Shown here piece by piece: positions 171 through 10,676 of a DNA stretch of 10,676 nt. Both the position numbers and the translations under genes were made by a program. Within the stretch, counting starts at the first letter, position 1. The number at the start of each line of letters is the position of its first letter. Source of the stretch: Candidatus Thorarchaeota archaeon (lineage in GTDB: Archaea > Asgardarchaeota > Thorarchaeia > Thorarchaeales > Thorarchaeaceae). The stretch spans positions 1 to 10,676 of the forward strand of contig JAWOEX010000015.1 in the NCBI GenBank assembly GCA_046482545.1. The letters are read 5' to 3'. The notes under the pieces were generated by a model. That model was given only the letters and a program-made list of their open reading frames with translations, searched no databases and had not been told where the DNA came from.

Positions 171-294
171 TCCGAAGTGAGCAGACCGAAAGTATGACTC
201 GTGCTGCACCTAGAGTTGTCAAGATTTGAGCAGAACCTCAAGAAACTGTACCTCCATCCTCAGCATTTCTTAGTTAGTTTTGGTTTTGCAGTGT
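171..294 (+). repeat. Repeat copy 1: last few nt of 23S rRNA plus 3' trailer and T-rich tail
   Basis: 171-266 aligns with 10279-10375 with few differences. Invariant core GTACCTCCATCCTCAGCAT at 248-266. The tail TTAGTTAGTTTTG is shared with copy 2 and TTTTGCAGTGT with copy 3. Confidence 0.93.
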
Positions 295-1307: not shown

Positions 1308-1370
1308 CAAGATTTGACAGAACCTCACAGAAGCAGTACCTCCATCCTCAGCATCTGTTAGTTAGTTTTG
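1308..1370 (+). repeat. Repeat copy 2 (most 5'-truncated copy of the rRNA 3' trailer)
   Basis: CAAGATTTGA at 1308-1317, GAACCTCA, core at 1336-1354 and tail TTAGTTAGTTTTG. Begins 7 nt after the methyltransferase stop codon. Confidence 0.92.
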
Positions 1371-3648: not shown

Positions 3649-3734
3649 ACCTAGAGTTGCCAAGATTTGAGCGGAACCTCAGAAAAGCAGTACCTCCATC
3701 CTCAGCATTTCAGTTTGTTTTGTTTTTGCAGTGT
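3649..3734 (+). repeat. Repeat copy 3 (5'-truncated rRNA 3' trailer)
   Basis: ACCTAGAGTTGCCAAGATTTGAGCGGAACCTCA, core at 3690-3708, T-rich tail ending TTTTGCAGTGT. Begins 33 nt after the stop at 3615. Confidence 0.93.
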
Positions 3735-4416: not shown

Positions 4417-4517
4417 AGACCGAAGGTATAACTCGTGCTGCACCTAGAGTTGCCAAGATTTGAGCAGAACCTCATGAAACATGTACCTCCATCCTCAGCA
4501 TTTCTCATTCAGTTTTG
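4417..4517 (+). repeat. Repeat copy 4 (5'-truncated rRNA 3' trailer)
   Basis: AGACCGAAGGTATAACTCGTGCTGCACCTAGAGTTGCCAAGATTTGAGCAGAACCTCA, core at 4483-4501. Begins 39 nt after the stop at 4377. Confidence 0.93.
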
Positions 4518-4623
4518 ATGTCTTACAGTGTTGTTTTTGCAGAAAGAGTTGGTATTCCGATTCTCAGTTGTCCCACACAAAACAGATGATACCTTATTGC
4601 GAGCAATATCTAAACGCGAACAA

Positions 4624-4651
4624 ATCAAGAATAGGCAAATTTTACAAAAAT
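4624..4651 (+). repeat. 28-bp imperfect direct repeat, left copy (flanks the structured RNA)
   Basis: ATCAAGAATAGGCAAATTTTACAAAAAT versus ATCAAGAATAGACAAGTTCTACGAGAAT at 5190-5217. 23/28 identical, and all differences are transitions. Confidence 0.65.
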
Positions 4652-4731
4652 CCTAAAAAATCCGAGTGGAAGAGTGTAAAAGATCTGTAAGATTTCCTGT
4701 AAGTGCTACTCTAGACCCAGGGCGGTATGAC

Positions 4732-4738
4732 TTTATTA
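4732..4738 (+). promoter_or_regulatory. Putative TATA box for the structured RNA
   Basis: TTTATTA about 25-30 nt upstream of the start of the GC-rich structured segment. Confidence 0.45.
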
Positions 4739-4763
4739 GGTCCAGTACGAAATTTCGTTTCAG

Positions 4764-5171
4764 TAGGACTAGGCAAGTGGGCTAGTGCTCTGACACGACG
4801 CGCGCGGCTGAAAGCTGTGAGGTGGACTCGTTCCCCTAAGCAGAAGTCCCCACTCTCCCCCAACGGTTCTCCATCAGACCGGGGAGAGTCCGCGGCTGTT
4901 CACCTCGTCTGTAATGGGCCATCTCTGCGGCGGTGACAATGTTGAGGTGGGTGATCATGACCACGCCGTGGCAAGAACTGTGGAAGACCTCGCTGTCGCC
5001 GGGAGTGATGACCCAGGATGACAACAGGAGAAAGAAGCCAGGACCGCGGGAGGAATCCCATTCCTGTGAACGTGGACAAAGCCCCTGCTGACTCACGGGC
5101 CTACGGGTACCGTGGGGGCGGCGACGCTGGCAGGGGAAGGGTGGAACACAGAAGTTTCATGCAGTTCCTAG
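4764..5171 (+). ncRNA. Unidentified large structured ncRNA candidate (~410 nt)
   Basis: GC-rich with no credible ORF. Nested helices: 4819-4827/4898-4906, 4852-4860/4881-4889, 4931-4938/4994-5001, 4944-4948/4987-4991, 5024-5029/5062-5067, 5082-5089/5129-5136 and 5092-5098/5110-5116. Tetraloops c(UACG)g 5102-5105, GCGA 5121-5124 and GGAA 5052-5055. The G-U pairs and tetraloops work on the + strand. Boundaries approximate. Confidence 0.7.
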
Positions 5172-5189
5172 AACTGTAAGAAATGGGTT

Positions 5190-5217
5190 ATCAAGAATAG
5201 ACAAGTTCTACGAGAAT
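5190..5217 (+). repeat. 28-bp imperfect direct repeat, right copy
   Basis: 23/28 identity with 4624-4651. Confidence 0.65.
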
Positions 5218-7582: not shown

Positions 7583-8568
7583 GGTTCTGTAGAATAATAC
7601 ACGAATTAAGAGGCGAACCGGTCGTGTCACATGATTCATGCACTACGATGTCTCATACAACGCGGCCAAAGCTCGCCGCTATCACTTTCTCCTTTATGAG
7701 CTTATGAGCCTTTGCAATACCATTCCCGATACGAGATCCCAGCATGGACGTCCTGTTGAGTTTCCCCTTCCCACACTCTTTGTCCTCCTCGGGCTCAAGT
7801 TTGACACTGGTCTTGGATATCGTGACTTCATTGCCACCCTCACCTTCAACACTGTCCTGCTCCAGCGACTTGGACTTGAGCGAGCCCCTCACTTCTCCCT
7901 CCTCCAGAAGGCAGTGAGGCGGTTGGACACCCAGCTTCTCCATCAGATGTACCAGCTCCTTGCCAACAAGCGTTCTCCTCCAAAGACGATTGCTGTGGAT
8001 TCTTCTGGGTTCTCTCACTCGTCCGGTGGCGAGTGGATGACCTTCCGGTTCAAGAGAACACGGAAACGCCGTTTCCATGCCCTTCACAACGCCGTTGACA
8101 CCGACACCCTGATGATCACCGCAGCTAGAGTGAGTGCACGACCAGGTGGTGATGCCAAACACCTGGCCTCTCTTGTGAGGAGGGGGGATTGCAGGAGACT
8201 TGAGACTGTCTACGGGGACAAGGCCTACATCTCACGACAGAACGTCCAGTTCATCCATGACCTTGGTGCATACCCAGCTATTGAACCAAAGAAGAGGTTG
8301 CGAGCTCGATCTCGAGGACATCGAGGATACAAGGAGTTGATCAGTGAATATCGCTCTGACCCCGATGAGTGGAAGCGGGTTCATGAGTATGGAATGAGGA
8401 GCCTAGCGGAGACTGTGTTCGGGATGATGAAGGTGAGGTTCACGGAGCGTCTGGGGTCACGAGGATTCAGAGAACAACGTCGCGAGTTGTTGATCAAGGT
8501 GGTCCTTCACAATATCGAGCGACTCAACTTCTTGGAGTGTGCCGGGAGGTGACTTTTTCTACAGAGCC
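7583..8568 (+). mobile_element. Complete IS5-family insertion sequence (IS903-like ends), 986 bp
   Basis: TIRs GGTTCTGTAGAATAA (7583-7597) and TTTTTCTACAGAGCC (8554-8568), 13/15 match. 9-bp target duplication GGCAAAAAT at 7574-7582 and 8569-8577. One transposase ORF fills the element. Confidence 0.93.
7638..8552 (+). CDS. IS5-family DDE transposase
   Basis: 304 aa. IAVDSSG (D1), YGDKAY (D2), and YGMRSLAETVFGMMK, which fits the Y-2-R-3-E-6-K motif. Confidence 0.95.
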   Translation: MHYDVSYNAAKARRYHFLLYELMSLCNTIPDTRSQHGRPVEFPLPTLFVLLGLKFDTGLGYRDFIATLTFNTVLLQRLGLERAPHFSLLQKAVRRLDTQLLHQMYQLLANKRSPPKTIAVDSSGFSHSSGGEWMTFRFKRTRKRRFHALHNAVDTDTLMITAARVSARPGGDAKHLASLVRRGDCRRLETVYGDKAYISRQNVQFIHDLGAYPAIEPKKRLRARSRGHRGYKELISEYRSDPDEWKRVHEYGMRSLAETVFGMMKVRFTERLGSRGFREQRRELLIKVVLHNIERLNFLECAGR

Positions 8569-8577
8569 GGCAAAAAT

Positions 8578-9479: not shown

Positions 9480-9971
9480 GTGAAAAGCAAAAGTAATGCG
9501 ATTATTCTATGTTTAGCTATATTGATAATAGCTGGATTTGTTGCTCCTGCCTTGGCAGGACGAATCACATACAATGATGATGAACCTACAGTTTATTATG
9601 GAAGCTGGGAAAGCGACGACGATGCCACTGAAGAAGATATTAATGGTATTTATCGCTGCGAATTTCAGTTCGTATTCACCGGAATTAAAACTGATGGTGA
9701 TAATGAATACTATGTCAATATTGATTATGACGGCGAAGAACCTGGATGGCTGTGGGACGCTGAAAGTCTTTATGTTCACTATAAGTGGGGTTCTGGCAGC
9801 TGGGTATATCTTTGCAGGTTAGACATTGCAACTTCAGACAAGGATTGGGAAATTAATGATGCAACCAGTTCAACCCTCTACCTCCGTTTCACGGATGCTA
9901 ATGATTATAGTGATGACACCCTCCATACATGGAAATTTAGCGATACACCGTACGCTATCTGTGACTACTAG
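9480..9971 (+). CDS. Small secreted acidic hypothetical protein
   Basis: 163 aa, GTG start. Signal peptide MKSKSNAIILCLAILIIAGFVAPALA. Mature domain rich in Asp/Glu/Trp/Tyr with beta-type patterning. Has its own promoter and terminator. Confidence 0.85.
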   Translation: MKSKSNAIILCLAILIIAGFVAPALAGRITYNDDEPTVYYGSWESDDDATEEDINGIYRCEFQFVFTGIKTDGDNEYYVNIDYDGEEPGWLWDAESLYVHYKWGSGSWVYLCRLDIATSDKDWEINDATSSTLYLRFTDANDYSDDTLHTWKFSDTPYAICDY

Positions 9972-10019
9972 TATTCGACAATTAAATGAATTAGAGATTT
10001 AATAATACAAATAAAGATT

Positions 10020-10062
10020 GGGTTGCTGCTCAAGCAACCCTTTCTTCCTCTTTTCCTATTTT
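10020..10062 (+). terminator. Hairpin plus T-rich terminator
   Basis: GGGTTGCT-GCTCA-AGCAACCC is a perfect 8-bp stem, followed by TTTCTTCCTCTTTTCCTATTTT. Confidence 0.75.
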
Positions 10063-10235
10063 CGACTACACAAAGGAGTTGTCACTTCGTAGGATAATTC
10101 TGTATCGGATTCACATCAATTTTGTTCATAATAAATGACGGTCATGATCCTGCAAACTAATTCATTTTGGTCACAACAAACCCTTATTCAACTAAACGAG
10201 GGACACCAGCAATTTCGCTATTTCAAGGGAATCGG

Positions 10236-10290
10236 AGCACCGAGCTCCGGCGAGGTGTTCAGCTCACCGCTACTAATGTCCGAGGCGAGC
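10236..10290 (+). rRNA. 23S rRNA 3'-terminal fragment (helix 101 to 3' end; not a full gene)
   Basis: AGCACC-GA-GC-TCCG-GC-GA-GGTGTT forms the archaeal-type helix 101 with tandem GA pairs and a UNCG loop. It is followed by CAGCTCACCGCTACTAATGTCCGAGGC, which matches the conserved LSU 3' end as I recall it (E. coli GUUGAGCUAACCGGUACUAAUGAACCGUGAGGC). Upstream 23S sequence is absent. Mature 3' end approximate. Confidence 0.8.
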
Positions 10291-10375
10291 AGACCGAAAG
10301 TATGACTCGTGCTGCACCTAGAGTTGTCAAGATTTGAGACGGAACCTCAAGAAACAGTACCTCCATCCTCAGCAT
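10236..10375 (+). repeat. Repeat copy 5 (longest): 23S 3' end plus 3' trailer
   Basis: 10279-10375 aligns with 171-266. Core at 10357-10375, followed by a T-rich tract. Confidence 0.93.
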
Positions 10376-10676
10376 CTATTTTATTTTAGTAATGCGGTTT
10401 CAAAACAAGAAGAAATGATGGTCCGTTTTGTTGTTTTTCGCAGACGGCTTCATTTCACTTCCCTGGTTATGCCTGTTCATGAGTCGATTCTGAGAGCAAG
10501 TCTCAAATAGTGCCGCTCTTTCTCATGTCAGGATAGTAGGAACGGGAGTCAAATGTCAGGTTTCTTCCACTACAATAGGAAGATGCGGTTAGAGCGAGTG
10601 CTTTCGCTGGGTTGTGTTCTCCAGTTGTATTCATCTGAGTGGAGACTGACATCTGATGCCAATCACACAGAGGGCA

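Follow-up and report, generated by a model that had tools for sequence, protein, structure and literature searches.

We found that positions 10236 to 10391 of the stretch of DNA analysed here (10,676 nucleotides; the window) are a 5′-truncated copy of the tail of this archaeon's single 23S rRNA gene, a piece that cannot belong to a ribosome. The window is contig C18 of G000, a metagenome-assembled Thorarchaeota genome that is 98.9% complete. It is one of about 33 co-oriented fossil tails that mark cassette boundaries in a large array of accessory genes behind the 23S gene, and we consider it probable that these tails reflect homology-dependent recombination.

The identity of the fragment was established by comparison with the genome's own rRNA. 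The sole LSU gene of the G000 assembly lies at C2:80561–83864 and scored 2416 bits with the archaeal and 1686 bits with the bacterial Rfam model. BLAST aligned window 10236–10391 with C2:83805–83960 at 91% identity over 157 nt (E 4.9e-56), and in a pairwise alignment with the tail of the gene on C2 the first 64 nt were without difference; in the mature 23S part we counted 0 differences in 57 positions. This part of the copy comprises the following features.

10236..10295, + strand: orphan copy of the last 60 nt of mature 23S rRNA, corresponding to C2:83805–83864
10235–10260, + strand: distal hairpin of helix-101 type (H101), from folding
within 10236..10295, + strand: 3′ terminus CAGCTCACCGCTACTAAT...CAGACC, from alignment to the only LSU gene of G000

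The original prediction, made from the letters of the sequence, had described a hairpin of the helix-101 type, and it folds as described. It had also called the piece a fragment: homology to the 23S gene ends sharply to the left of 10236, and the piece is therefore a fragment, with the remainder of the gene absent upstream and no other LSU sequence found in the window by Rfam scan or BLAST. Alignment further places it at the 3′ end of the real 23S rRNA of G000, in agreement with the proposal of a displaced end of an rRNA gene; its displaced status is supported by the substitution pattern of the orphan copies described below. Two checks had been suggested, of which comparison with the archaeal LSU covariance model failed to recover the fragment. 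Rfam cmscan gave no LSU match for the whole window at the gathering score, nor for 9950–10676 at E ≤ 10, and returned only chance matches at the level of snoRNAs and miRNAs. Because a 60-nt piece is too short for a model of 2987 positions, we take this miss to reflect a limit of sensitivity and not to count against 23S homology, for which we regard the alignment to the organism's own gene as decisive.

To the right, as had been claimed, the rRNA end runs on into a repeat with four other copies in the window. About 80 nt match the trailer of the real 23S gene, which bears out the reading of the downstream ~85 nt as 3′ external spacer. Co-folding of the native leader and trailer gave a stem of about 60 bp, in which leader C2:80483–80552 pairs with trailer C2:83869–83943. 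It contains a bulge-helix-bulge (BHB) motif of 3-4-3 form, made up of trailer bulge AGA (83889–83891), a 4-bp helix AGGT/ACCT and leader bulge AAT (80534–80536), in the order outer helix, AGA bulge, 4-bp helix, AAT bulge and inner helix. MFE co-folds gave a strict 3-4-3 BHB in 7 of 11 genomes of the family, and the same half, ACCT[AGA]G..., stands opposite leader AGGT[AAT] in 7 of the 11. Both flanking helices show compensatory changes among relatives, with gctgcac/gtgcaac versus actgtgc/gcacagt in the inner helix and ggcagc/gttgtc versus cacgac/gtcgtc in the outer helix. As modelled, the native stem of G000 is an ordinary, canonical archaeal BHB processing stem, and the window carries a copy of its 3′ side.

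10296..10375, + strand: orphan 23S 3′ trailer, the 3′ strand of the pre-23S processing stem, corresponding to C2:83865–83944
10316..10332, + strand: 3′ half of the BHB, with ACCT at 10316–10319, the AGA bulge at 10320–10322 and GTTGTCAAGA at 10323–10332 (outer helix)
10357..10375, + strand: 19-mer GTACCTCCATCCTCAGCAT, the 3′ strand of the stem base, which pairs with leader TGCAGAGGATGGAGGTAC at C2:80483–80500
10376..10391, + strand: oligo-T tract CTATTTTATTTTAGTA, directly after the stem base, aligned with C2:83945–83960

Folding the orphan trailer against the real 23S leader, the other suggested check, yielded a BHB stem. The duplex of the window trailer (10296–10376) with the leader had an energy of −76.4 kcal/mol, compared with −75.7 kcal/mol for the native trailer and −30.7 ± 5.0 kcal/mol for shuffled sequences, and its BHB geometry was intact, with AGGT[AAT] opposite ACCT[AGA]. 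The expectation that the spacer would hold the 3′ strand of a BHB processing stem thus proved correct. Folded alone, the orphan trailer RNA showed no self-structure (−15.6 kcal/mol, z = 0.06). The 19-mer is the best-conserved block of the repeat, and the leader block with which it pairs is conserved across the family. The oligo-T tract, retained in most tail copies, is likely to be the archaeal-type transcription stop of the rRNA unit. No further copy of the 23S leader was found in G000, so that the leader is single-copy; matches that resembled it were rejected as leader copies, being reverse complements of trailer copies. It follows that the cassettes do not have complete BHB stems at their ends.

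BLAST with the native tail detected 33 further tail copies in G000, on seven contigs and all on one strand within each contig.

C13: 5 tail copies
C17: 4 tail copies
C18 (the window): 5 tail copies
C19: 6 tail copies
C31: 1 tail copy
C32 (its last 23 kb): 8 tail copies
C45: 4 tail copies

The four that accompany the 10236–10391 copy in the window are listed with the span of C2 to which they correspond and the energy of their duplex with the leader.

171..266, + strand: orphan tail copy (C2:83848–83944; −75.7 kcal/mol)
1308..1354, + strand: short orphan tail copy, without the BHB half (C2:83897–83944; −46.9 kcal/mol)
3649..3708, + strand: orphan tail copy beginning exactly at the BHB half (C2:83885–83944; −64.4 kcal/mol)
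4417..4501, + strand: orphan tail copy (C2:83860–83944; −79.3 kcal/mol)

The 5′ ends of the orphans are sharp but ragged, falling at almost every few bases between reference positions 83805 and 83931. About half of the 3′ ends lie at 83944, the base of the stem, and the remainder at 83947–83991; beyond the 19-mer, similarity among copies fades gradually with no abrupt stop. Identity to the native tail ranges from 75 to 98%; it is lowest (74.7%) in the outermost copy of C32, which speaks for an age gradient. The cassettes between tails measure 0.8–6 kb, have genes on either strand and carry unrelated, ordinary cargo, including a methyltransferase, ABC transporters, peptidases, an Arf-like GTPase and a PIN protein. 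At its distal end the C32 array adjoins core genes for a DEAD-box helicase and the termination factor FttA, and the 23S gene has a gene for RNase PH upstream. Contig C2 continues for 204 nt past the 23S gene and has no physical link to the array contigs of G000. Several of the small array contigs have identical or nearly identical ends; judging from these, the fragmentation is probably in part strain variation at the array locus. The 33 copies may not all stand in one serial array, some small contigs possibly being strain variants.

The window also shares sequence with other contigs beyond its last tail copy.

10392..10676, + strand: right flank common to the downstream flank of the native 23S gene and to other orphans (C19:250–1, C13:3706–3909, C31:16689–16858)

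Its last ~150 nt are identical to those of reverse-complemented C19, and these ends of C18 and C19 look like an assembly bubble. Paralogous multi-pass membrane proteins of ~236 aa (C13:2913–3623 and C31:15899–16606) follow orphan tails and the shared flank of ~290 nt; flank and protein region may represent an ancestral neighbour of the 23S gene that was duplicated along with the tail. We considered these recurrent ~236-aa proteins as recombinase candidates and rejected them, as they are multi-pass membrane proteins. A separate set of paralogous cargo genes ends in a hydrophobic anchor followed by KKR and a stop codon, the stops lying 0–15 nt from orphan tails.

C17:11184–12149: KKR-stop cargo gene
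C45:~380–1016: KKR-stop cargo gene
C19:>12939: KKR-stop cargo gene
C32:51633–52481: KKR-stop cargo gene
C32:>36762: KKR-stop cargo gene

Each of these genes meets its orphan at a different tail position. The motif ATCAAGAAGCGATGA, found to the left of several junctions, was considered as the end of an element and rejected, since it is the 3′ end of these membrane-anchor genes. Elsewhere in the window, 7583–8569 is an element with a DDE transposase of the IS5/IS4 type that is 98% identical to a copy on G001:C64; compared with the 79–94% identity of surrounding cassettes, this suggests recent transfer or activity. A protein-free repeat of ~0.5 kb occupies 4622–5196, with copies at C2:33139–33447, 65728–66191 and 78842–79301 and in G001. 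The 23S gene of G000 itself contains an insertion of ~228 nt (C2:83137–83364) in place of a short hairpin loop of G001 and G005. Long helices form when this insertion is folded, and candidates for its nature are an expansion segment, a mini-intron and an inserted element.

Related genomes carry arrays of the same kind. At least 20 and 14 tail copies were found in G001 and G002, sister species in the genus of G000, and 2–5 per genome in five other genera of the family, with more when each genome's own tail served as query. On long contigs the copies lie directly downstream of, and co-oriented with, the 23S gene or the most complete copy.

G001:C120: copies downstream of the 23S gene or most complete copy
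G005:C46: copies downstream of the 23S gene or most complete copy
G016:C1: copies downstream of the 23S gene or most complete copy
G021:C3: copies downstream of the 23S gene or most complete copy

The copies of G016, G021 and G004 likewise stop, on their 3′ side, at the stem base or the T tract and have variable 5′ ends; G005 is an exception, its orphans stopping just after the outer helix of the BHB, without the stem base. One orphan of G001 (C64:104824–105098; reference 83671–83948) retains 194 nt of mature 23S rRNA, far more than any copy in G000. Orphans are closest to the native tail of their own lineage (96% in G005) and so do not represent the ends of a single travelling element. Cassettes common to the three species of the genus are 79–94% identical and have different neighbours, and each of the three has its own first cassette behind the native tail. 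The ragged 5′ junction moves with the cassette to its left, as seen at p = 83840 in both G000:C17 and G001:C84.

We examined how the orphans differ from the native tail. Twenty-three of them span the stem strand, with 3–33 of 79 aligned positions different from native, and most of these form duplexes with the leader of −67 to −79 kcal/mol, compared with −37 to −70 kcal/mol in simulations with equal numbers of random substitutions. When the informative variable sites were compared with the pairing of the native stem, most proved to be A/G or C/T changes that face a U or G of the leader, or to fall within a bulge or internal loop. Divergence from native was 5.3% in the mature 23S part and 13.5% in the spacer part (Fisher p = 5e-6, a value overstated as the copies are related). 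Conservation at paired and unpaired trailer positions among orphans was 0.89 and 0.79, a difference that is suggestive only (p = 0.06) and much less clear than the outcome of the energy simulation. In a four-gamete test, 119 of 190 site pairs were incompatible, a result that gene conversion and recurrent wobble-neutral change fit equally well and that we therefore leave out of the argument. Uniform decay of dead duplicates would be expected to give neither the preservation of pairs nor the difference between mature and spacer parts, and working tails would give both; these two patterns therefore suggest that most of the divergence arose during service as a working tail. We conclude that it arose while the orphan, or the copy with which it last recombined, was the working tail paired to the leader. 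Judged by their substitutions, the orphans appear to be tails that once worked and not duplicates in decay.

A second array is anchored on the 16S gene. The 16S trailer (C2:1495–1777) has six diverged, co-oriented copies at C2:13666–32912, 12–31 kb downstream of the 16S gene. As at the 23S gene, blocks of foreign genes lie directly behind a single-copy rRNA gene; the 16S copies, however, begin after the mature 16S end and consist of trailer only, whereas the 23S copies hold up to 60 nt of mature rRNA in G000 and more in relatives. The presence of two unrelated anchors, the 16S and 23S tails, argues against a sequence-specific enzyme. The 16S locus on C2 is itself unusual: the whole model is matched in only 1230 nt, preceded by atypical high-GC sequence (region C2:1–260), and a second, partial 16S lies at the end of C33 (C33:32736–33767). 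The 16S locus of C2 and C33 is probably an assembly chimera or collapse.

Searches for enzymes that might build such arrays were negative near the tails. Pfam profiles for tyrosine recombinases (PF00589, PF16795), serine recombinases (PF00239) and Cas1 (PF01867) had no match in G000, a result that leaves room for a novel enzyme, and PF00589 had none in G000, G001 or G002, the genus with the largest arrays. Integrases exist in three other genera (G004, G005 and G016), none of them on array contigs, and no recombinase lies at either border of the array, where RNase PH stands upstream and the DEAD-box helicase and FttA at the distal end. In G000, G001 and G002 (96–99% complete) not even a dimer resolvase of the XerA type was detectable; other genera of the family have PF00589 matches. 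G000 encodes six full-length TnpB-like genes, some at contig ends, none of which is on an array contig, and among the array contigs of five relatives the closest approach of a TnpB gene to the array is ~43 kb (G001:C64). Tail 13-mers occur outside the arrays at about the number expected by chance, with none adjoining the 3′ end of a TnpB gene. The exact 19-mer gave only chance matches in collections of genome and metagenome contigs that do not include G000 and genomes near to it.

These observations can be accommodated by a model in which homology-dependent recombination brings new DNA in at the rRNA tail. Entry could occur through a Campbell-type single crossover of a circle bearing a tail copy, or through a homologous crossover within the 23S gene or its tail, the far side being closed by an illegitimate join. 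By either route the working gene would keep or receive a complete tail, and the earlier one, shortened from its 5′ side to a variable extent, would be stranded behind the insert. Later recombination between tail copies could shuffle and excise cassettes or exchange them among related strains, and might sometimes turn an orphan back into the working tail; such recycling is our proposed reason why orphans can still pair with the one leader. We infer both the direction in which the array grows and the cycling between orphan and working states. The ragged 5′ joins, the 3′ boundary at a functional end, the gradual fading beyond it, the lack of an enzyme, the two anchors and the signs of past service in the orphans together favour homology-driven recombination, to which, taken on its own as the mechanism, we give roughly even chances. 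No pair of empty and filled sites for one insertion event was caught in the genomes compared. A broader proposal, which we advance tentatively and hold to be possible, is that the family captures genes without a dedicated recombinase by swapping the tails of single-copy rRNA genes, that the array is an ordered fossil record of these swaps and that excision keeps the repeats BHB-competent. In a more daring form, transcribed orphans may form real BHB sites in trans with the pre-23S leader, coupling cassette RNAs to rRNA processing.

The main rival to tail swapping is an unrecognised site-specific enzyme acting at the 19-mer, which, being invariant at the right edge of most copies, could be its core site. 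In such an integron-like scheme, circles would be inserted at a core site in the 23S tail, for instance where the 19-mer ends, and the orphans would be the counterparts of attC. The near-invariance of the 19-mer at the common right boundary is what this would predict, as is the way co-oriented copies mark off modular cassettes whose neighbours differ from species to species. Pairing with a leader block conserved throughout the family explains, however, why the 19-mer is conserved, and the stem base is wholly absent from G005 orphans. Ragged 5′ ends, similarity that fades past the 19-mer, an orphan with no hairpin of its own (z = 0.06) and a 16S array anchored on a different sequence also speak against it, as does the lack of tyrosine and serine recombinases and Cas1 in G000, of tyrosine recombinases in G001 and G002 and on the array contigs of G004, G005 and G016, and of any recombinase at the array borders; we regard it as unlikely. 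We rate slightly lower the idea that the orphans are working RNA elements, which once transcribed would pair in trans with the pre-23S leader or process or terminate cassette transcripts, with a BHB formed by leader and orphan serving the splicing endonuclease to regulate 23S maturation or to process cassette RNAs. Most orphans do keep near-native energy and an intact 3-4-3 BHB despite many substitutions, the single-copy leader means that pairing would have to be with the rRNA precursor, and Asgard archaea have been reported to contain 16S and 23S transcripts in circular form (PMC12918454). Nevertheless, copies without the BHB half or the inner helix persist (window 1308–1354, C31:16954 and C19:1733), cassette genes occur in both orientations with respect to the repeat, and 33 decoys of an essential processing step would be costly; the conservation of the mature 23S part, useless to such an element, is better explained by a past as working tail.

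The remaining explanations are weaker. Asgard transposons that combine aCas1 with TnpB have been described (PMC10691335), and with this precedent and the six TnpB-like genes of G000 one might suppose that guides matching the rRNA tail direct breaks or insertion there. This is improbable given that TnpB is missing from the array contigs of G000 and at least ~43 kb away in the five relatives, that G000 has no match to Cas1 and that tail 13-mers outside the arrays show neither excess over chance nor association with TnpB 3′ ends. Moreover, insertion of the IS605 type does not duplicate its target, and the 5′ junctions are too dense for one adjacent motif. Ragged 5′ ends and a common 3′ end at the likely end of the transcript would also suit 5′-truncated cDNA copies of the rRNA precursor, comparable to SINE or R2-type events, but the copies are not dispersed: they form one co-oriented array beside the gene and are separated by multi-gene blocks with genes on both strands and an IS inside, which makes retro-copying very improbable. 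Chimeric joining of rRNA reads to other contigs of the bin has in its favour that the bin is fragmented at exactly these loci and that C2 looks chimeric at its 16S end. Such an artefact would not, however, produce copies as diverged as these (75–98%), their recurrence in six or more other genomes on long contigs that also include the 23S gene, or orthologous cassettes with the same junction in two species, and we consider its probability negligible.

Homology-dependent recombination at the tail therefore remains the reading that we prefer, and several consequences follow from naming the repeat. What was anonymous becomes a readable record, in which each boundary is a former 23S end together with its processing signal. 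The arrays amount to an accessory-gene region of ~75 kb, summed over contigs, in an Asgard archaeon, and they point to the tails of rRNA genes, 23S and in parallel 16S, as sites of gene capture where no known integrase is detectable. Repeats derived from rRNA tails also explain why such loci break metagenome assemblies. In addition, with more than 20 natural stem alleles tested against one leader, the orphans map the positions that the BHB stem tolerates. In our literature search, arrays delimited by rRNA-tail copies appeared in no paper, and multiple spare BHB halves were, as far as it reached, likewise undescribed.

The arrays resemble several known systems in part. In archaeal pre-rRNA, the BHB stem is cleaved by EndA and the ends are ligated by RtcB to give a circular pre-23S; the window element faithfully copies the 3′ strand of this stem and differs in lacking a 5′ partner of its own, so that there are ~33 spare 3′ strands for one leader. 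Beside the only 16S gene of Heimdallarchaeum, the insertions HeimM2 and HeimV2 have been ascribed to a homing-endonuclease-like gene (PMC8813620), which was not seen here. In tRNA and tmRNA islands with their attL and attR ends, co-oriented partial copies of a gene's 3′ end likewise bound foreign blocks and the working gene stays complete. Here, by contrast, the site targeted is the tail of 23S rRNA together with the external spacer, our searches detected no integrase, the ragged 5′ boundaries (83805–83931) leave no fixed crossover, and the cassettes are small and without mobility genes of their own.

Homology-facilitated illegitimate recombination, in which a homologous anchor is combined with a join at microhomology, is known from naturally transformable bacteria. 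It would yield a conserved anchor with a sharp, variable join on one side and an intact other side, and would need no dedicated enzyme; as far as our literature search reached, it turned up no case in archaea or at rRNA genes. With integrons the arrays share one-sidedness, small, unrelated and modular cassettes, a recurring site, a fixed anchor and an order that differs among relatives. They differ from the system of IntI, attI and attC in having no IntI-type recombinase, no self-folding repeat and cassette genes on either strand, and in that the repeat copies a cellular RNA-processing signal. The array thus shows none of the features that define integrons and stable-RNA islands, namely an integrase, a fixed crossover and a self-folding site. 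If tail swapping is true, it would be a recombinase-independent analogue of the integron in the closest prokaryotic relatives of eukaryotes.
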